Source: an uncultured Bacilli bacterium (lineage in GTDB: Bacteria > Bacillota_I > Bacilli_A > RF39 > UBA660). From it: a stretch of 64,000 nt of DNA. Below are positions 7,442-62,697 of the stretch, piece after piece. Within the stretch, counting starts at the first letter, position 1. Every line of letters starts with the position of its first letter. The stretch spans positions 67,846 to 131,845 of the forward strand of contig CAKONC010000004.1 of the NCBI GenBank assembly GCA_934096985.1, written 5' to 3'. The position numbers and the translations under genes were made by a program. The notes beneath the pieces were generated by a model. The model was not told the DNA's origin, did not search any database, and saw nothing but the letters and a program-made list of their open reading frames with translations.

Positions 7442-7467
7442 TAAAAAAAGCAATTTTTTAAATTGCC
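7442..7467 (-). terminator. Putative intrinsic terminator at the gpmI stop
   Basis: Minus-strand GCAATTT-AAAA-AATTGC hairpin followed by a U-run. The stem is AT-rich and short. Confidence 0.5.
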
Positions 7468-8969
7468 TTCTTATCTTTAAGGATTAAAGATTCTCCTGTC
7501 ATTTCTTCAGGTATAGAAATATCCATATAATCAAGTATTGTTGGAGCAACATTTGTTAAATCTCCTTCTTCTTTTAACTTCAATTTATCATCATTTATAA
7601 CAAATGGCACATCTGATAAACTATGAGTTGTACATACACTGCCATCTGCATTTATCATTGTATCAGCATTTCCATGATCAGCAAGTAAAACGATAGTATA
7701 GAAATTGTCTTCAGCGGCCTGAACTATTTTGCTAAAGCAAATATCAACTGCCATACATGCTTTTGTTGCTGCATCCATGCTGCCAGTATGTCCAACCATA
7801 TCTGGATTTGCAAAATTCACTAAAATAAAATCATAATCTTGCTCCATACATGTAATTACCTTTTTAGTTACACTAACAGCACTCATTTCTGGTTTTAAAT
7901 CATACGTTGCAACATCAGGAGAAGGAATATGAAATTTATCTGTTCCTTGAAGTTTGCCTTCGTAACCTTCATCAAAAAAGTAAGTAACATGTGGATATTT
8001 TTCACTTTCTGCTATTCTAGCTTGAGTTAACCCAAGTTTTGAAAAATAAATTCCTAAGCTATTTTCAACTTTAGGTTCCCCTATTAAAACGTTTGCATTT
8101 ATTGCTTTATCATGATTAAAGAAAGTGAATAGTTCTACACCTAATGTATCAATTGTTGGAAATTCATTAAATTTCTGATTCGTTAATGCAAGTAATATTT
8201 GTTTACTTCTGTCAGTTCTATAATTCATCCAAAATAAAATATCATTATTTTTAATTAAACCATTATGATCTAAAAGCATTGGTTTAAGGAATTCATCTGT
8301 AACTCCTTTTTCATAACTTGCATTTATTGCAGCTTGAGCGTTTAATATTTCTACCGAACTTCCTTTAGTTATTAAATCATAATAAAGCTTAGTTCTATCA
8401 TAATTTTCATCTCTATCCATTGCATAATATCTTCCACATATTGTAGCAATTGAGCCAACTTTATTTTTTTTAATAAGAGATTCAATCATAGATATATATT
8501 TATAAGAAGATTGTGTATCAGTATCTCTTCCATCAGTGATTAAATGAAAATAAATTTCTTTAAAACCTAGTTTAACTAAATAATTATATAAATTAATAAA
8601 ATCATCAATGCCTGCATGAACGTTGCCATCACTTGCTAAACCCATGATATGAACTCTTTTATTTAAATTATTTTTTAGATTAACAAAAGCTTCATTATCA
8701 CATGTATCCAAATTTTCTAGAAATTTATCTGTTAAAACTTCTCTAGAATAAATTCTTCTTCCAGCACCAATTGTCATATGACCAATCTCACTATTGCCAA
8801 ATTGGCCATCATATAAACCAACATAGTGTCCACTAGCATGTAATGTTGAATGAGGATATTTATTATAAAACTCATTAAAGTTCACCATATTGGCCTTTTT
8901 TATAGCATTACCATCCTCATCATTTCGAATGCCAAATCCATCAAATATAATTGTTAATAACTTTTTCAT
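7458..8969 (-). CDS. gpmI: 2,3-bisphosphoglycerate-independent phosphoglycerate mutase
   Basis: About 503 aa; MKKLLTIIFDGFG...GNSEIGHMTIGAGR...ADHGNAD are iPGM motifs. Start trimmed to the second Met cluster (8969). Confidence 0.9.
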   Translation of the reverse strand: MKKLLTIIFDGFGIRNDEDGNAIKKANMVNFNEFYNKYPHSTLHASGHYVGLYDGQFGNSEIGHMTIGAGRRIYSREVLTDKFLENLDTCDNEAFVNLKNNLNKRVHIMGLASDGNVHAGIDDFINLYNYLVKLGFKEIYFHLITDGRDTDTQSSYKYISMIESLIKKNKVGSIATICGRYYAMDRDENYDRTKLYYDLITKGSSVEILNAQAAINASYEKGVTDEFLKPMLLDHNGLIKNNDILFWMNYRTDRSKQILLALTNQKFNEFPTIDTLGVELFTFFNHDKAINANVLIGEPKVENSLGIYFSKLGLTQARIAESEKYPHVTYFFDEGYEGKLQGTDKFHIPSPDVATYDLKPEMSAVSVTKKVITCMEQDYDFILVNFANPDMVGHTGSMDAATKACMAVDICFSKIVQAAEDNFYTIVLLADHGNADTMINADGSVCTTHSLSDVPFVINDDKLKLKEEGDLTNVAPTILDYMDISIPEEMTGESLILKDKKAI

Positions 8970-9035
8970 AAAATCAATTCTTTCTAAAAAAATGATATCA
9001 CATACTAACATTTTTTTCAATTATATTAAAATTTG

Positions 9036-9064
9036 ACAAAAAAAAATTACATTTTAGTAATTTT
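9036..9064 (-). terminator. Putative intrinsic terminator directly after spo0A
   Basis: Minus-strand AAATTAC-TAAAAT-GTAATTT hairpin followed by a run of U. Confidence 0.55.
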
Positions 9065-9065
9065 C

Positions 9066-9815
9066 TTAAAAAGGTTTATTATCTAATTTAATACGATCTG
9101 CAATTGTAGTTAAAAACTCTGAATTTGTAGGTTTTGACTTATCACAGCTTACACTAAATCCAAATAGTTCTTCCATAAGGTTAATATCTCCCCTAATCCA
9201 GCTTACTTCTATTGCATGTCTTATAGCTCTTTCAACTCTAGATGGGGTAGTTTCATATTTTAAAGCAATCTGAGGATAAATTTCTTTAGTAACTAGTGAA
9301 ACGGAATCATTATTAAAAATAAGCATTATTCCGTCTCTAATATATTTATATCCTCTTATATGTGAGGGTATGCCTAGATTATGTAATAATTGACTTACCT
9401 CTAAATCTAAACTATTATTTTTAAACAGTAAAGTTTTATTTTCATAAGTTTCATTTATTTTTTTCTCTAATGAAATGATACTATATGGCTTAATTAAATA
9501 ATAAGAAATATTATATGTATTGCAATCATTTATTAGTTTTGTATCTTTATAATTTGATGTAACTATACATTTTAAATTGATACCTCTTGATTTAATTTCC
9601 TCTAATAAAGTTGCTCCATCCATTCTTGGAACTAATAATTCAAGAATTAATAAATCAATGCTATCCTTATGATTTATTATATATTCTAAGGCTTCCTCAC
9701 CATTTGAAAATGATGCTACCACTTTAATATTCTCATTATTACTAAAATGATTCTTTAGGTTATTTACGGCTACTACATTATCATCTACAATTATTGTGCG
9801 TATGCTATTTTTCAT
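9066..9815 (-). CDS. spo0A: Sporulation master regulator Spo0A (receiver + Spo0A_C domain) with Glu at the phospho-acceptor position
   Basis: The C-terminal [16 protein letters not shown]...[20 protein letters not shown]...[17 protein letters not shown] matches the B. subtilis Spo0A effector domain nearly motif for motif. The receiver has IIVDDN and LIKPY, but [14 protein letters not shown] where DVLVLDIIMPHLDG is expected. Confidence 0.85.
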   Translation of the reverse strand: [249 protein letters not shown]

Positions 9816-9921
9816 GTTTCCTCTTTCCTATAAATTACCGCCACACAACTAGATAATATACCATATTCATACAAAAAGCAAGTAAATATTTTGTAAATAT
9901 ATGACTATTTACGTAAATTTT

Positions 9922-9928
9922 TGTCGAA
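9922..9928 (+). promoter_or_regulatory. Candidate Spo0A box (TGTCGAA) in the spo0A upstream region
   Basis: Exact 0A-box heptamer inside TTTTTGTCGAATTATGGCA (9918..9936). It lies about 105 nt upstream of the spo0A start and just past the pgk terminator. Confidence 0.5.
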
Positions 9929-9933
9929 TTATG

Positions 9934-9976
9934 GCAAAAAAAGAATGGATTTAGTTTTTTTCTATAAAATCCATTC
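9934..9976 (-). terminator. Intrinsic terminator of pgk (hairpin spans the stop codon)
   Basis: Perfect 10-bp stem GAATGGATTT / AAATCCATTC (9943..9952 and 9967..9976) followed on the minus strand by UUUUUUU. Confidence 0.6.
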
Positions 9977-11078
9977 CTTTTAAATGATCACTACTTATGT
10001 ATTCAAGTGATGCTCCACCACCACTTGATAAAAATGAAAAATTATCACTTAACCCGAATTTATTAATTGCATTTAATGTGTCTCCACCACCAGCAACTTT
10101 ATATGCATCAATATTTTGAAGTGAAGAAAATAAATTTTTTGTACCAGTGGCATAATTTTCATTTTCAAATACACCACATGTTCCATTAATAAAAATTGTT
10201 TTACTCTTTTGAAAATAACTAATATACTTGTTAATTGACTTAGTATTTAAATCCAAAATTTTATCTTCGTCAATCACAAAATCAATAGGTAAAACTATTT
10301 TATTTCTAAATTCTTTTATTAAGCTTTTTATTTCTAATATAGTGATCTCATCATTGGTACACAAACTATCCATTACATCAAAACCACAAGCAAACAAAAA
10401 TGAATTTGCAATACCACCGCCCACTAACAAATAATCACATTTTTTTAATAAATCTTTAATATAACCAAGTTTATCATCCACTTTTGCTCCACCCATAAAT
10501 ACTGTGAAAGGTCTTTGAATATTTGTTATAAGTGGTTTTAAATTTGTAAGTTCTTCTTTAACTAGGAAACCATAATATGTAGGCAAAAATTCAGAAATTC
10601 CAGCAACTGAAGCATGAGCTCTATGCAACGAAGCAAAAGCATCAACTACAAATACATCTCCTAAAACTGACCAATAATTAGCCAAATTTTTATCATTTTT
10701 ACTTTCAAGTTTTTCAGGATAGTCACAAAATCTGGTATTTTCTAATAATACGACATCACCAATTTGCATATCTTTGCATGTTTTGATTACATCCATTCCA
10801 ACAGGAGAAGAAACGAAAGTTACCTCTTTACTTAACAAATTACTTAATTCATCCGCAACAGGTTTTAAAGTATTATATATTTTATCTTCCCTAGTTTTTA
10901 TTCTGCCCATATGGCTTAATAAAATTACTGAATTATTTTCTAAAAAATACTTAATTGTTTTTAAACTTTTGACAATTTTAGTATTATCCATAATTTTGCC
11001 ATCTTTTATAGGTACATTAAAATCACATCTAATAATGATTTTTTTATTATAAAATTTTTCTTCATCAATAAATTTCAT
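9951..11078 (-). CDS. pgk: Phosphoglycerate kinase
   Basis: 375 aa; ...RCDFNVPIKDGKIMDNTKI...LLSHMGR...GGGDT... are PGK motifs. Follows gap. Confidence 0.9.
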   Translation of the reverse strand: MKFIDEEKFYNKKIIIRCDFNVPIKDGKIMDNTKIVKSLKTIKYFLENNSVILLSHMGRIKTREDKIYNTLKPVADELSNLLSKEVTFVSSPVGMDVIKTCKDMQIGDVVLLENTRFCDYPEKLESKNDKNLANYWSVLGDVFVVDAFASLHRAHASVAGISEFLPTYYGFLVKEELTNLKPLITNIQRPFTVFMGGAKVDDKLGYIKDLLKKCDYLLVGGGIANSFLFACGFDVMDSLCTNDEITILEIKSLIKEFRNKIVLPIDFVIDEDKILDLNTKSINKYISYFQKSKTIFINGTCGVFENENYATGTKNLFSSLQNIDAYKVAGGGDTLNAINKFGLSDNFSFLSSGGGASLEYISSDHLKGMDFIEKN

Positions 11079-11148
11079 TTATCAACACCCTTTATCTAAA
11101 TTAATTTTAGCAAATATATTGTTCTTTTGCAATTAAAAAAGATGCTTA

Positions 11149-12162
11149 TTATTTAAACATCTTTATAGCTGTTCGTAACATTTGTGCAGTGTAACCATAT
11201 TCATTATCATACCATGCGGTAATTTTAACTAATTGCTTACCATTATATTCAACAATATTTGTAAGTAAACTATCATATAAGCAACCACATTTTCTTCCTA
11301 TTACATCAGATGAAACTAGTGGTGCACTGGAATATATAATACTTTCTGATTGATTATTTTTTATAGTTTCATTAATCAGCTCAATAGTTACATTTTTAGA
11401 AAGTTCAAGAGTTACGTCTACCATAGAACCATCTATAGTTGGTACTCTATAAGCAATACCGTCCATCTTTCCTTTCAGCTCTGGAATTACTAAACCTATT
11501 GATTTAGCGGCTCCAGTAGATGTTGGAACTATGTTATGGGCACTTGCCCTTCCTCTTCTTGAATTAATACCTTTTTTATGAAAATTATCTAAAGAATTTT
11601 GATCTGCAGTATATGCATGAATAGTACTCATAAATCCTTTTTCTACACCAAAATTATCACTTATAATTTTAAGTAATGGTGCTAGACAATTTGTTGTACA
11701 ACTAGAAGCACTTACAATTATATCTTCACTATTGATTTTATCATCATTTACATTTGCTACAATTGTTGGCATCTGTCCTTTTCCTGGAGCAGAAATAAGC
11801 ACCTTTTTAGCACCTGCTTTTATATGTTTATAAGCATCATCATAATTAGTAAATGCTCCAGTGCATTCTAAAACCAAATCAACATTTAAATCCTTCCATG
11901 GTAAATTTTCAGGATCTAATTCTGAATATAAAGGAATTTTTTTTACACCAGCTATTATTAAATTATTTCCATCATAATTTATTTCATTTTCATGAAATGT
12001 TCCATGAACAGAATCATATTTTATTAAATATGCTGCTGATTCTGCATCCATGTCTTTATTATTTATTGCTACTATGTCAAATTCAGTGGAAGTTATCATT
12101 TGCCTAAAAGCAAGTCTTCCAATTCTTCCAAAACCATTAATTGCTACTTTAATCATATTCAC
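11149..12162 (-). CDS. gap: Glyceraldehyde-3-phosphate dehydrogenase
   Basis: MIKVAINGFGRIGRLAFR...SASSCTTNCLAP...WYDNEYGY are canonical GAPDH motifs. Confidence 0.95.
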   Translation of the reverse strand: MNMIKVAINGFGRIGRLAFRQMITSTEFDIVAINNKDMDAESAAYLIKYDSVHGTFHENEINYDGNNLIIAGVKKIPLYSELDPENLPWKDLNVDLVLECTGAFTNYDDAYKHIKAGAKKVLISAPGKGQMPTIVANVNDDKINSEDIIVSASSCTTNCLAPLLKIISDNFGVEKGFMSTIHAYTADQNSLDNFHKKGINSRRGRASAHNIVPTSTGAAKSIGLVIPELKGKMDGIAYRVPTIDGSMVDVTLELSKNVTIELINETIKNNQSESIIYSSAPLVSSDVIGRKCGCLYDSLLTNIVEYNGKQLVKITAWYDNEYGYTAQMLRTAIKMFK

Positions 12163-27469: not shown

Positions 27470-28186
27470 CTAATTATTCCCTTTCTTTTTAAATACATTT
27501 TTATATGTTTTTAGATTTTCTATACAAATAACGTCATTAATTTTTACGTGATTTTTACTATTCTTAATACACTTAACTATAACTATTGACGGACTTGCAT
27601 TTGATTTTGTTTTTACTAATTGAACTTCTTTAATATTAAGATTATATTTATTTCCTAATATAAATAACTCGTCTAGCCTTTCGGTTCTATTTATTATATA
27701 TAAAATTCCTTTATTTTCAAGATAGTTTTTTGCAACGATAAATATATCTTCAAGTTTTAACAAAACTTCATGTCTAGCAATCATTTTCTCTTGCACATCA
27801 TTGACCATTTTCCCATTATATTCAAAATATGGTGGATTACACATCATTATACTAAATGACTCTTTTTTAAAATAACTACCAATGTTTTTGACATCATCAT
27901 TGATTATTGTTATTTGATTTTCTAAATTATTAATTTCAACCGATTTTTTGGCCAATTCAGAAATCTTAGATTGTATTTCAAAACCAACAATTGAAAATGA
28001 AGTATATTTAGATAAGATTAAACATGCAGCTCCATTACCAGTACAAATGTCTAGTATCTTACCACTTATATTATATTTTTGCACAAATTCTGGTAATAAT
28101 ATTGAATCTAACGAAAACTTAAAAAAATCGGTATTTTGAAATATATACCTATTCTCATAATCAAATAAATCATTTTTTACGATCAT
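27470..28186 (-). CDS. SAM-dependent methyltransferase, YabB/TrmN6-like (NPPY class)
   Basis: ...ILDICTGNGAACLIL... and MCNPPYF motifs. Sits in the yabB slot after yaaT. Confidence 0.6.
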   Translation of the reverse strand: MIVKNDLFDYENRYIFQNTDFFKFSLDSILLPEFVQKYNISGKILDICTGNGAACLILSKYTSFSIVGFEIQSKISELAKKSVEINNLENQITIINDDVKNIGSYFKKESFSIMMCNPPYFEYNGKMVNDVQEKMIARHEVLLKLEDIFIVAKNYLENKGILYIINRTERLDELFILGNKYNLNIKEVQLVKTKSNASPSIVIVKCIKNSKNHVKINDVICIENLKTYKNVFKKKGNN

Positions 28187-28952
28187 TTTTTATTTGCTCC
28201 GCATCAATAATAAGTTTTTCTTCTTCACATGCTATTTTATATTTTTTATTTAATATATCAACACTAAGGATAGTTGCATCTTTGCCATTGTATTTAATAA
28301 TATTTCCCACTGATAATAAATTTTTACTGCATTTTATATATTCTTCGTCTTCATAATTTAAACAGCATAATAACCTGCCACAGCAACCATTAATTTTTGA
28401 TGGGTTAAGCGCTAAATTCTGATTTTTTGCCATATTCATTGTAATAGAATCAAATTGATTTAAAAATCTAGAACAACACATTTTTTGACCACAAATGCCA
28501 ATTCCACCAATTTGTTTTGCTTTATCTCTTGCGCCAACTTGTCTTAATTCGATCCTTGTTCTATATATACTTGCAAGTTTTTTTGCAAGTTCTCTAAAAT
28601 CTATTCTGTCATCTGCATAAAAGTTAAATAATAATTGGCTTCGATCTAAATTATATTGAGCGTTTAATATATGCATATCCAATTTTAAATCATTAGCAAG
28701 GCTTTTTGCTTTGTTTAGTGCTATATCAGCATCTTTTAAATTTCTATAAAAATTGTTTTTATCTTCTTCTGAAGCTTTTCTAATAATTTGTTTATATTCA
28801 TTATTATCATTTTCAAATTTTTTAACTATTTTACCGAACTGATGACCCTTTTCAGTGTCTACAATTACTTCATCATCAATCTCAAAACGTTCTTCACTTT
28901 GAAAGTAATAACATTTACAATTACCTTTATAACATATAGCATAACTAATCAT
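28170..28952 (-). CDS. ricT: PSP1-domain protein RicT/YaaT (stage 0 sporulation protein)
   Basis: ...RQVGARDKAKQIGGIGICGQKMCCSRFL...NGCCGRLLCCLNYE is the Cys-rich PSP1 signature. Follows holB. Confidence 0.8.
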   Translation of the reverse strand: MISYAICYKGNCKCYYFQSEERFEIDDEVIVDTEKGHQFGKIVKKFENDNNEYKQIIRKASEEDKNNFYRNLKDADIALNKAKSLANDLKLDMHILNAQYNLDRSQLLFNFYADDRIDFRELAKKLASIYRTRIELRQVGARDKAKQIGGIGICGQKMCCSRFLNQFDSITMNMAKNQNLALNPSKINGCCGRLLCCLNYEDEEYIKCSKNLLSVGNIIKYNGKDATILSVDILNKKYKIACEEEKLIIDAEQIKNDRKK

Positions 28953-39461: not shown

Positions 39462-39468
39462 TGTCGAA
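39462..39468 (+). promoter_or_regulatory. Candidate Spo0A box (TGTCGAA) upstream of the comK-like gene
   Basis: Exact heptamer in AAATATGTCGAATTTTAAA, within the 66-bp dnaN/comK-like intergenic region. Confidence 0.4.
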
Positions 39469-40736: not shown

Positions 40737-42098
40737 TTATAACTTATTTTTAATTTCTTTAATAACATTATTTAACTTGTCATCTTTTTTCAAGTCATTT
40801 GTTATTTTATCATATGACGCAGAAATTGTTGAATGATCCCTCCCTCCAAATTCTAAACCTATTCTTTCAAGTTTTTCATCAGTTTCAACACGGCATAAAT
40901 ATATGGCAATATGTCTTGGCTTACTAATGTTAGCAACTTTTTTCTTACTTTTTAAATCACTTACTGTAATTCCAAAATAATCAGCAACTGCTTTTTGAAT
41001 TTTACTTATTGAATTATCAGCATAGATATTAACACTAAGATAATCTTTTAAAGCCTCAATAGCAAAATTTAAATCAATTTTATCTGGTACCATCATTGCG
41101 GTATAAGCCATTAATCTATTAATTGTACCTTCTATAAATCTAATATCATTTTGACAGGAATTTGCAATATATTCAATAACTTCTTCGTTTAACCTATCTT
41201 CTAGTGATGTATTTTTAATTTTATTGTGGATAATTTTACATCTAAGTGCAAAGTCTGGGGGATAAATATCAACAGGTAATCCCCACATAAACCTACTTCT
41301 TAATCTATCTTCTATTTTTTTTAGGTCATCAGGTGATCTATCAGAACTAATAATTATTTGTTTATTTGATTGATACAATGCATTAAATGTGTGAAAAAAT
41401 TCTTGTTGAGATTTATCTGCTCCTACTAAAAACTGTATATCATCAATAATGAGAACATCAACATTTTTATACTTATCTTTGAAGTTTTTTGCATAACTCA
41501 TTGAGTTAATACCTTTTTCTAGACTAGCAATGCCAGTATAATCTTCAACAAATTCATTACTAGTAACATATAAGACCTTTTTATTTGAATGTGCAACAAT
41601 ATAATTTCCAATTGCATGCATTAAATGAGTTTTGCCTATACCGCTACGTCCATAAAGAAATAATGGGTTATGAATAGAACCGGGATTTTCAGCTACGGCA
41701 TGAGCGGATACTACGGCAAGTCTGTTCGAATCCCCTACTACAAATGTTTCAAATGTAAATTTAGGGTTTAAATTAGTTTCCCAAGATTCATTATTATCTT
41801 CATCTTTTTTTATAACCTTTTCATTTTTTTCAATAACATTACTTTTTGGTAATTCATCTTCTACATAATACTCGAAATCAAATGATTTACCAGTTATATT
41901 TTGAAATATATTATCAATAACATCTTTATAATTTTCTGAAAGCATTTTTTTATGTATTTCCATTGGAACACAAACTTTTAAAATATTTCCATTCAAAGAA
42001 ATAGGTTTTATTTTAGAAAACCAAAGGTTATATACATTTATACTAACAACATGTTCTACTTCTTCAAGAAAAGTCTTAAATAGTTCCTCTAAATTCAT
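40737..42098 (-). CDS. dnaA: Chromosomal replication initiator protein DnaA
   Basis: ...NPLFLYGRSGIGKTHLMHAIGN...LIIDDIQFL...RFMWGLPVDIYPPD...GGRDHSTI... are canonical DnaA. Confidence 0.97.
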   Translation of the reverse strand: MNLEELFKTFLEEVEHVVSINVYNLWFSKIKPISLNGNILKVCVPMEIHKKMLSENYKDVIDNIFQNITGKSFDFEYYVEDELPKSNVIEKNEKVIKKDEDNNESWETNLNPKFTFETFVVGDSNRLAVVSAHAVAENPGSIHNPLFLYGRSGIGKTHLMHAIGNYIVAHSNKKVLYVTSNEFVEDYTGIASLEKGINSMSYAKNFKDKYKNVDVLIIDDIQFLVGADKSQQEFFHTFNALYQSNKQIIISSDRSPDDLKKIEDRLRSRFMWGLPVDIYPPDFALRCKIIHNKIKNTSLEDRLNEEVIEYIANSCQNDIRFIEGTINRLMAYTAMMVPDKIDLNFAIEALKDYLSVNIYADNSISKIQKAVADYFGITVSDLKSKKKVANISKPRHIAIYLCRVETDEKLERIGLEFGGRDHSTISASYDKITNDLKKDDKLNNVIKEIKNKL

Positions 42099-42440
42099 AC
42101 CTTACCCCACAAATAACTTTTTGACACCTTAATTGTACTTCATTTTTAAAAAAAGATAAAGCAAAAAAATATATAAACAAAAATTCCCCACAACTTATCA
42201 ACATTTTTTTCTTTTGTTTACTAGGATAGCATAACATTTTAACACTTTCAACAAAATTTTTTTGTCGAATTTTGTTGAGAACTAAAAATAATAATTAAAT
42301 AAATTGTTATAAATGTTGAAAAAATGTGAATAAAATGTTGACAAATTTGTTGAAAACTTTTTGAAGCTAGGTAAATCCTATAAAAAAATAGGGTGTATTT
42401 TTGTTGATAAATTTTGTATAATTAATACATATTATATGTT
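42099..42440. promoter_or_regulatory. oriC, dnaA-upstream segment: cluster of DnaA boxes
   Basis: TTATCAACA 42195..42203; TGTTGAGAA 42273..42281; a head-to-tail array TGTTGAAAA 42314, TGTGAATAA 42325, TGTTGACAA 42336, TGTTGAAAA 42348 (11-12 bp phasing); TGTTGATAA 42402..42410. Coding strand switches here. Confidence 0.75.
42263..42269 (+). promoter_or_regulatory. Candidate Spo0A box (TGTCGAA) inside oriC
   Basis: TTTTTTTGTCGAATTTTGTTGAGAA: the exact heptamer lies 3 nt from a DnaA-box-like TGTTGAGAA. Confidence 0.45.
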
Positions 42441-42444
42441 TTGC

Positions 42445-42474
42445 TTGACTAAAAGTCGAAAATAATATTATAAT
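42445..42474 (+). promoter_or_regulatory. Sigma-A-type promoter for rpmH-rnpA
   Basis: TTGACT (42445..42450), an 18-nt spacer, then TATAAT (42469..42474), about 35 nt upstream of the rpmH ATG. Confidence 0.5.
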
Positions 42475-42508
42475 AGTAACGCTATAAAAGAAAAGGAGAG
42501 ATTTTAGT

Positions 42509-42631
42509 ATGAAAAGAACGTATCAACCAAATAATAGAAAAATGAAAAAAACACACGGATTTTTCTCAAGAAAAAATGGTAAAGTTTTAAATAATCGTCG
42601 TAAAAAAGGTAGAAAAGTTTTATGTAAATAA
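42509..42631 (+). CDS. rpmH: 50S ribosomal protein L34 (40 aa)
   Basis: ATG after AAAGGAGAG. Translation [40 protein letters not shown] compares with B. subtilis MKRTFQPNNRKRSKVHGF.... Too short for the ORF track. Confidence 0.9.
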
Positions 42632-61827: not shown

Positions 61828-61834
61828 TGTCGAA
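61828..61834 (+). promoter_or_regulatory. Candidate Spo0A box (TGTCGAA) upstream of csp
   Basis: Lies in TTTTTGTCGAATTTTGGCA (61824..61842), identical at 18 of 19 positions to the motif upstream of spo0A. Confidence 0.45.
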
Positions 61835-61904: not shown

Positions 61905-62117
61905 TTGAAAGGAAAAGTAAAGTGGTTTAATAATGAGAAAGGGTATGGATTTATAGAGTGTGAAAATTTATCCGATATATTTGTTCATTATTCAGTAATC
62001 AAGAAAAATGGTTATAAAACTTTAAATGAAGGAGACATGGTAAGTTTTAGATTAATAGAAACTACTAAAGGTTTACAAGCTCAAGATGTCGAAGCCTTAA
62101 ATTTAACTACTGTATAG
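61905..62117 (+). CDS. Cold-shock protein (CspA family), probable TTG start
   Basis: (M)KGKVKWFNNEKGYGFIECENLSDIFVHYSVI... RNP1/RNP2 motifs. GGAAGGTG lies 5 nt before the TTG at 61905. The ORF-track ATG at 61887 has no RBS. Confidence 0.85.
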   Translation: MKGKVKWFNNEKGYGFIECENLSDIFVHYSVIKKNGYKTLNEGDMVSFRLIETTKGLQAQDVEALNLTTV

Positions 62118-62166: not shown

Positions 62167-62697
62167 ATGAAAATTAATATTAGGGGAGACAAAGTAACTG
62201 TTACAAAATCAATTAAAGATTATATTGAGGAAAAAATTGCAAAGCTTGATAAATATTTTAAAAATAGTGATGAAGTTAAATGTAATATTATTATTAGAGT
62301 CAAAAATAATTTACAAACTATTGAAGTTTCTATTCCAATGTCAAAACTTAATATAAGAGCAGAGGAAAGTCATAATGATTTATATGCTGCCACTGATTTA
62401 ATTATAGATAAATTAGAAAGAATGATTAGAAAAAATAAAACAAGATTAAATAATCATTATAAAAATATTCCAACATTTGAGATGAATTTAGATTATGAAG
62501 AAGAAAATGATTTAGATGATTCAAAAATAGTAAAAAGAAAAAATTTAGACATTAAGCCAATGGATGAAGACGAGGCAATAATGCAAATGGAACTACTAAA
62601 TCATGACTTCTTTGCTTTTAAAAATATAAATGAAGAATGTGTATCTGTTATTTATAAAAGAAAAGATGGATTATACGGAATTATTAATGTAAAATAA
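62167..62697 (+). CDS. hpf: Ribosome hibernation promoting factor (long HPF/YvyD)
   Basis: MKINIRGDKVTVTKSIKDYIEEKIAKLDKYF... and C-terminal ...KPMDEDEAIMQMELLNHDFFAFKN.... Confidence 0.9.
   Translation: MKINIRGDKVTVTKSIKDYIEEKIAKLDKYFKNSDEVKCNIIIRVKNNLQTIEVSIPMSKLNIRAEESHNDLYAATDLIIDKLERMIRKNKTRLNNHYKNIPTFEMNLDYEEENDLDDSKIVKRKNLDIKPMDEDEAIMQMELLNHDFFAFKNINEECVSVIYKRKDGLYGIINVK

Follow-up and report, generated by a model that had tools for sequence, protein, structure and literature searches.

We analysed a 64-kb stretch of DNA (contig CAKONC010000004.1, hereafter the window) from a lineage of uncultured gut Bacilli with 26% GC, whose members NCBI labels as 'Mycoplasma sp.', 'Mollicutes' or 'Bacilli bacterium'. 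The window contains the origin-region genes dnaA, dnaN, recF, gyrB and gyrA. About 32 kb from dnaA/oriC it carries spo0A, the gene of the sporulation regulator Spo0A, in the order PRK-gap-pgk-spo0A-gpmI-rpsJ. A sequence-only reading had proposed that this spo0A is embedded among glycolytic genes and encodes Glu in place of the phospho-acceptor Asp. We observed that gap, pgk and gpmI do flank spo0A (gap, pgk, spo0A and gpmI span window positions 7458-12162). The gene thus sits between pgk and gpmI, in the slot of tpiA in the glycolytic operon of the Bacillus subtilis type. tpiA was not seen at this locus, and the arrangement is common to relatives whose Spo0A retains Asp (Asp-type relatives). 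The gene 3' of spo0A varies: in L011 (10810-12231) it is only 36% identical to the gpmI of the window, and in L088 (6821-8194) and a second Glu-bearing clade described below (clade B) it encodes a shorter 'Metalloenzyme'-only protein of about 455 aa.

The open reading frame (ORF) starts with ATG, is preceded by a ribosome-binding site (AGGAAAGAGGA, 9819-9829) and encodes 249 aa (Table 1). That the gene is Spo0A, as the earlier reading stated, was borne out by matches to both Pfam domains and by the NCBIfam equivalog model TIGR02875 (spore_0_A), which it passed marginally (213.9 bits, cutoff 200). A clade member with 57% identity is named by NCBI just 'Spo0A C-terminal domain-containing protein'. 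The effector matched the Spo0A-C structures 1LQ1 and 1FC3 (E about 1e-37, phmmer). For structural comparison we used an AlphaFold2 (AF2) model built from a 100-sequence alignment (mean predicted local distance difference test score, pLDDT, 87.6); a single-sequence model was set aside, its effector having a pLDDT of 56. In Foldseek superpositions, TMt was 0.85-0.90 for the effector against 1FC3/1LQ1 and 0.89 for the receiver against 1QMP, the phosphorylated form of Spo0A-N. The modelled receiver has the (beta-alpha)5 fold (strands E, helices H: E5-10, H14-25, E30-36, H39-48, E55-59, H67-76, E82-87, H92-96, E103-108, H113-124). All motif strings quoted earlier were found in the translation. By architecture, score, fold and position the ORF is a genuine Spo0A, one that lacks the phospho-acceptor Asp.

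To our knowledge, Asp occupies the acceptor site in every Spo0A that has been studied. Here, HMMER aligned the Glu59 segment with CheY3 'IDIVTLDITMPKMDG' around the acceptor Asp, and in the MAFFT alignment Glu59 fell on Asp56 of B. subtilis. In the AF2 model Glu59 is the last residue of beta3 (residues 55-59), D11 and D12 follow beta1, S87 lies at the end of beta4 and K109 follows beta5. Alignments and model thus agreed with the claim that the acceptor is Glu while the acidic pair and the Lys are retained; no Asp was placed at the site by either, and the codon reads GAA as claimed. Compared with a canonical receiver, we found the acidic pair after beta1, the Thr/Ser after beta4 and the Lys after beta5 in place, and Glu59 where the Asp at the end of beta3 would be. 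Aspartate-less receivers of the Glu subtype are defined by a PF00072 match with Glu at the acceptor Asp (PMC4395418; PMC12632262); by this definition the receiver, as judged from its sequence, is a Glu-type pseudo-receiver.

Table 1. Features at the spo0A locus (window coordinates).
Feature	Position	Strand	Evidence
spo0A coding sequence, 249 aa	9066..9815	-	ORF list; Pfam Response_reg and Spo0A_C; TIGR02875
Receiver domain, residues 8-120	9456..9794	-	Pfam PF00072 Response_reg, 8.8e-19
Spo0A_C effector / DNA-binding domain, residues 140-242	9090..9398	-	PF08769, 2.1e-37
Codon 59, GAA = Glu, phospho-acceptor position (B. subtilis D56)	9639..9641	-	Alignments and model; plus-strand TTC
D11 and D12 codons, acidic Mg2+-binding pair, kept	9780..9785	-	Invariant in 11/11 sampled Glu-clade sequences
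S87 codon, conserved Thr/Ser of receivers, kept	9555..9557	-	Invariant in Glu clade; end of beta4
K109 codon, conserved Lys of receivers, kept	9489..9491	-	Invariant in all homologues; follows beta5
Perfect 0A box TGTCGAA (TTCGACA on gene strand), 113 nt upstream of ATG	9922..9928	+	Sequence; interspecies conservation
Putative sigma-A-type spo0A promoter, -35 TTGCTT, 17 nt spacer, -10 TATTAT	9853..9881	-	Read from sequence and interspecies alignment of the pgk-spo0A spacer
Palindrome TTTACGTAAA between 0A box and putative promoter; candidate site for a second regulator	9908..9917	.	Only exact copy in the window

An Asp codon (GAT or GAC) is one nucleotide away from GAA, so a sequencing or assembly error could in principle have produced Glu59. 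We observed GAA in 6/6 independent metagenome assemblies, which differed from the window by 0-2 synonymous variants elsewhere in the gene, and the identical protein was indexed in 73 blocks of the assembly collection. In a scan of GTDB (one genome per species, receiver-specific patterns, about 20 kb seen per locus), all 11 species representatives recovered carried Glu, encoded by GAA in 10 and GAG in 1. They include Hadza 'uncultured Bacilli bacterium' metagenome-assembled genomes (MAGs), MGYG-HGUT-04242, Mycoplasma sp. CAG:472 and Bacillales bacterium UBA6448. Within this clade, a single cluster at 90% identity comprises 249 sequences. Glu was present in every member read, and one member sequence of the cluster occurs on 748 contigs. 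The next relative outside the Glu clade, the 'Mollicutes bacterium' MAG L018, has Asp (GAC). The six assemblies with their different synonymous variants, the 73 blocks and the 11 species, one of them with a GAG codon, rule out a base-calling slip for practical purposes, and we give that explanation next to no credence. The substitution is genuine and a trait of the lineage, and Glu59 is fixed in a clade of at least 11 species.

To place this change among related proteins, we read the acceptor column in the 120 closest homologues and found Glu in 20/120 and Asp in 100/120. A neighbour-joining tree indicated three origins of Glu. Clade A, to which the query belongs and whose sequences range down to about 56% identity, had 82% bootstrap support. 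Clade B branches from within the Asp-type sequences (97% bootstrap support; clade B plus its Asp-type relatives, 96%) and uses the codon GAG, its Asp-type relative having GAT. The two clades were grouped together in 0/100 bootstrap replicates. The third origin is the singleton P0014, which is uncertain because it is known from one contig only. On this tree, the replacement of Asp by Glu arose at least twice independently in the group of the window, with bootstrap support for both clades.

A further case was found outside this group. An unrelated Firmicute with 48% GC encodes a Spo0A with Glu57 (GAA; protein P0271, L093/L094 6001-6765, in 34 collection blocks), its spo0A lying at the canonical dxs-rrmJ-nadK-argR-recN-spoIVB-spo0A locus. 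P0275, a member of the same 90% cluster, has Asp, and the nearest other relative of P0271 is only 56% identical. As a control, we examined the nearest homologues of P0271, which are of the clostridial type: 118/118 keep the Asp and both residues of the acidic pair, which indicates that the pocket is normally invariant. In the group of the window, by comparison, the second acidic residue is Asn or Ser in 7/120. These data suggest that the phospho-pocket, as seen in aligned sequences, is unusually labile in this order-level lineage compared with the intact clostridial-type set. The acidic-pair changes of the group lie on several separate branches (D12 to Asn in P0040, P0043, P0064, P0086 and P0089; D12 to Ser in P0050 and P0119; D11 to Glu in P0090, P0091 and P0093). 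Among 50%-identity representatives of Spo0A-like proteins, the acceptor column held D in 101, E in 7, N in 7 and a few others. Four of these representatives (P0121, P0124, P0126 and P0128; 390-450 aa) match the Spo0A effector region at three or four distinct places and apparently consist of tandem Spo0A_C repeats without a normal receiver.

The gene could instead be a relic or a redundant copy, drifting or repurposed in a lineage that is losing sporulation or holds a second, canonical spo0A. Sporulation has been lost repeatedly in related orders with reduced genomes (PMC10868615), and between sub-clades the protein diverges faster than its surroundings: identity across the Glu clade, one half against the other (L012-L017 versus the window), is about 60% for Spo0A, compared with 73-80% for the flanking housekeeping proteins. 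Spo0A therefore outpaces its neighbours between the halves, yet dN/dS (the ratio of nonsynonymous to synonymous substitution rates) is low inside each half. Position argues against a relic. The order PRK-gap-pgk-spo0A-gpmI-rpsJ was found in all Glu-clade species, in the Asp-type L018, L087 and L088, and in L089 of the second Glu clade. Because the Glu-type gene occupies the same slot as the Asp-type spo0A of its relatives, it is a positional orthologue and no stray paralogue, which counters the degenerate-paralogue alternative that the sequence-only reading had raised. The ORF is also intact in 11 species and on hundreds of contigs.

Selection on the gene was also unlike that expected of a drifting copy. 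In clade A, the receiver had a dN/dS of 0.06-0.27 and the effector one of 0.01-0.29, at dS of 0.6-2.0; deeper pairs were saturated, and their dN/dS values are approximate. The ratio of receiver to effector divergence was 1.0-3.2 in clade A versus 1.7-4.3 for Asp-type pairs, and receiver divergence was lower in clade A than in Asp-type pairs in every effector-divergence bin above 0.05. This lower divergence indicates that the receiver is not relaxed, and the purifying selection seen on both domains argues further against a relic.

The acceptor codon was examined in the same way. Glu was kept throughout the sub-lineages of the Glu clade, between which dS was 0.9-2.0 (saturated). In clade A the third position of codon 59 was always A or G and never T or C, which would encode Asp. 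The codons of D11, D12 and D66 are still GAT or GAC in the Glu clade, so there has been no general drift from Asp to Glu. Compositional drift was likewise rejected as a cause, since a change from GAT to GAA leaves GC content equal and these three Asp codons have stayed as they were. By these codon comparisons, Glu59 is held by selection across at least 11 species.

Around Glu59, the residues D11, D12, S87, Y106 and K109 show no variation within the Glu clade. We identified seven residues in the receiver and linker that are fixed in clade A and rare in Asp-type relatives (A16, E59, R64, T86, L107, Y111 and N134), compared with only one such residue in the effector (I211). R64, T86, L107 and Y111 each lie within 5 residues of a pocket residue. 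Because T86 and Y111 are already present in the Asp-type L018, these two residues may have been permissive for Glu59.

We next considered the region upstream of spo0A. The perfect 0A box that the sequence-only reading had reported there was found as claimed, and a box at -113 to -126 is present in 11/11 Glu-clade species; one also occurs in the Asp-type L018 and L088 and in L089 of clade B. The window holds 7 perfect 0A boxes versus 2.46 expected, and 0/100 shuffles reached 7. The boxes are predicted cognate sites of this Spo0A, including one in its own promoter region, and the conservation of the upstream box would indicate continued DNA-binding function, a further point against a relic. The earlier reading took the box and the glycolytic embedding to fit a mechanism linked to Glu. 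Both are shared with some Asp-type relatives (the synteny generally, the box in L018 and L088) and so give such a mechanism no specific support.

A consensus promoter and terminator scan flagged nothing in the pgk-spo0A spacer, the putative sigma-A-type promoter (Table 1) falling below its threshold. The same scan found no intrinsic terminator in either spacer flanking spo0A, on the pgk side or on the gpmI side, so that read-through from the glycolytic genes is possible and spo0A, on this sequence evidence, may be partly co-transcribed with them. A second regulator may act at the palindrome TTTACGTAAA, located between 0A box and promoter (Table 1). Its core, TACGTAAA, is kept in 11/11 Glu-clade species; in the Asp-type L018, the inverted repeat at that place is a different one. 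As a recurring motif the palindrome was rejected, one-mismatch copies in the window being at chance level.

Perfect 0A boxes were also observed elsewhere in the window. The spacer between the divergent genes dnaA (40737-42098, minus strand) and rpmH (from about 42510, plus strand) is the replication-origin region (42099-42510) and contains a box at 42263-42269, about 32 kb from spo0A. Spo0A binds at oriC in B. subtilis, which the origin-region box, here predicted from sequence, recalls. Another box (39462-39468) lies about 50 nt upstream of the start of a ComK-family ORF (147 aa, PF06338; 38971-39414, minus strand) between dnaN and recF. Two more (61828-61834 and 62087-62093) are in the spacer upstream of hpf, which encodes a ribosome hibernation factor (62167-62697).

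We also assessed the sporulation genes of the window. The sporulation-specific genes yabG, spoVG, yabP, bofA, spoVT, spoIIR and spoIID are intact, and there is a probable yabQ and an M23 peptidase gene that may be spoIIQ-like. yabG is 76-99% identical across clade A, like its housekeeping neighbours. With intact, conserved sporulation genes in the 64 kb around a spo0A that is in the slot of its relatives, under purifying selection and accompanied by a conserved 0A box, we consider it quite improbable that the gene is a relic or a redundant copy. Annotation, with Pfam scans covering the right-hand third, found no histidine kinase and no small receiver in the window. A gene of the PSP1/RicT (YaaT) family (28170-28952, minus strand) is present alongside the Glu-type Spo0A; in B. 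subtilis, the phosphorelay is stimulated by the Ric proteins. Lineages related to Erysipelotrichales (PMC10868615) and Turicibacter (PMC13492147) are reported to have neither kinases for sporulation nor phosphorelay proteins that can be recognised.

His-to-Asp phosphotransfer does not accept Glu as a substrate; in several regulators, Glu is a partial mimic of phospho-Asp. Our data, which come from comparative sequence analysis, suggest that entry into sporulation probably does not depend on the usual phosphorylation signal in these bacteria. The proposal of the sequence-only reading, that this entry may be independent of the phosphorelay and governed by Spo0A abundance or by a partner protein, is plausible and partly supported. 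We favour, at somewhat less than an even chance, the reading that this is a functional Spo0A independent of phosphotransfer, in which Glu59 and the co-evolved pocket residues bias the protein to its active state and output is set by expression level. Spo0A(E59) would no longer take phosphate from a histidine kinase or a phosphorelay. The longer carboxylate of Glu59, together with the co-evolved pocket residues, would contact S87 and K109, and these contacts would bias the receiver to an active, dimer-competent conformation. The decision to sporulate would then be set by the amount of Spo0A, which would depend on transcription from the spo0A promoter (autoregulated through the conserved box upstream), on possible read-through from the gap-pgk operon and perhaps on a protein partner. 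In aspartate-less receivers, Glu is the replacement seen most often (26%), and contacts with the conserved Thr/Ser and Lys may let it work as a phosphomimic (PMC4395418; PMC12632262). Extending this reading to the whole clade is more tentative: it is conceivable that these widespread gut Bacilli have hard-wired Spo0A to be phosphorylation-independent, with Glu59 and its pocket as a phospho-mimic and with entry into sporulation controlled by dosage or transcription and not by kinases.

Several observations weigh against this reading of a phosphotransfer-independent Spo0A. In B. subtilis Spo0A the Asp-to-Glu change alone was not enough for constitutive activity, according to PMC4395418, which cites Green et al. 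1991 for this; a simple phosphomimic role of Glu59 would therefore also require the pocket substitutions that go with it. Both metal-binding Asp residues are strictly kept in the Glu clade, as a pure phosphomimic would not need, and phosphoryl chemistry of some kind could persist; in aspartate-less receivers the second metal-binding Asp is kept in only 29% (PMC4395418). Asp is also kept in 100/120 relatives of the same group, where phosphorylation is evidently still selected. Finally, kinases, Spo0E-type phosphatases or a second spo0A may lie beyond the 64-kb window.

The retained pocket bears most directly on the possibility that the protein is still phosphorylated, D11, D12, S87 and K109 transferring phosphate onto Glu59 (as glutamyl phosphate) or onto a nearby residue, with the logic of the phosphorelay preserved. 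The clade keeps every other catalytic residue unchanged, as aspartate-less receivers seldom do, and Glu phosphorylation is possible in principle; there is, however, no known example of it in bacterial signalling (PMC4395418). Residue 58, beside Glu59, is Leu, so a bypass of the Ser-56 type (CheY D57N) is unavailable. Receivers engineered from Asp to Glu are generally not phosphorylated. We therefore regard continued phosphorylation as improbable.

A different explanation is that Glu59 does not mimic phospho-Asp at all and that the pseudo-receiver is inert, inhibitory or neutral, and switched by a protein or a small ligand without phosphorylation. Its partner might be a kinase-like protein acting allosterically or an anti-activator. 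The usual docking surface for kinases and phosphotransferases, alpha1, keeps the family pattern (DDNxVAVxSIRxHF in Glu-type sequences versus DDNSxVVNNLKxHF in Asp-type ones), and constraint on the receiver at least equal to that in Asp-type relatives fits a conserved interaction surface. The insufficiency of Asp-to-Glu in B. subtilis Spo0A, as cited in PMC4395418, points the same way, and in some pseudo-receivers the residue at the Asp position was shown to be irrelevant (PMC12632262). On the other side, the window offers no candidate partner, with no histidine kinase or small receiver found in it. Moreover, Glu itself, and not just any non-phosphorylatable residue, was kept over saturated synonymous divergence and recurs independently, which points to a role of the carboxylate itself. 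We consider an inert pseudo-receiver unlikely, though a serious competitor to the reading in which Glu59 favours the active state.

That reading can be compared with known systems. The protein shares with canonical Spo0A (B. subtilis, G. stearothermophilus and C. difficile) the two-domain architecture, the effector fold with its recognition helix, a 0A box in the promoter region of the gene itself and a genome with sporulation genes. It differs in having Glu for the acceptor Asp, a short linker and a score just above the equivalog cutoff, and in its place near oriC as pgk-spo0A-gpmI in contrast to recN-spoIVB-spo0A. CtrA D51E and RcsB D56E are regulators engineered from Asp to Glu as phosphomimetics. 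Like such regulators, the present protein has the conserved T and K, whose contacts are thought to stabilise the active state; unlike them, its Glu is natural, fixed in a clade and accompanied by further pocket substitutions. The engineered phosphomimetic NtrC D54E has the same substitution at the same position, as cited in PMC4395418 (Klose et al. 1993).

Output driven by protein level alone, without phosphorylation, is known from the constitutive B. subtilis forms Spo0A-sad67 and the receiver-less Spo0A-C. These act by partial deletion of the receiver, which relieves inhibition, whereas the receiver is complete here and under purifying selection. The natural Glu-type pseudo-receivers Chlamydia ChxR, plant pseudo-response regulators and fungal Rim15p have, as here, a receiver fold with Glu at the Asp position. 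They have usually lost other pocket residues too, whereas the acidic pair, the Ser and the Lys are all kept here, and none of them is a Spo0A or a controller of endospore formation. ChxR is active without phosphorylation (PMC4395418; PMC12632262), and replacing its Glu did not abolish activity (PMC4395418). We found no description of a natural Glu-type Spo0A in the literature searched, in which an engineered Glu-Spo0A appeared only at second hand, where PMC4395418 cites Green et al. 1991.

Endospore formation is regarded as being triggered universally by phosphorylation of Spo0A, and the question is how this comes about in Erysipelotrichales-like or 'Mollicutes-like' gut lineages, in which sporulation kinases are not recognisable (PMC10868615, PMC13492147). 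A fixed and recurrent natural Glu at the acceptor site offers a concrete answer for one such lineage: its Spo0A may not be phosphorylated at all. The independent recurrences of Asp-to-Glu, together with the Asn or Ser at the second acidic residue in sister lineages (7/120), support a repeatable route by which the phosphorelay may be dismantled in reduced genomes. The co-evolved set of A16, R64, T86, L107 and Y111 could show what turns an Asp-to-Glu change into an active state. These organisms are common in human gut metagenomes, as the clade sequence found on 748 contigs illustrates, and the control of their sporulation therefore bears on the transmission of gut commensals.

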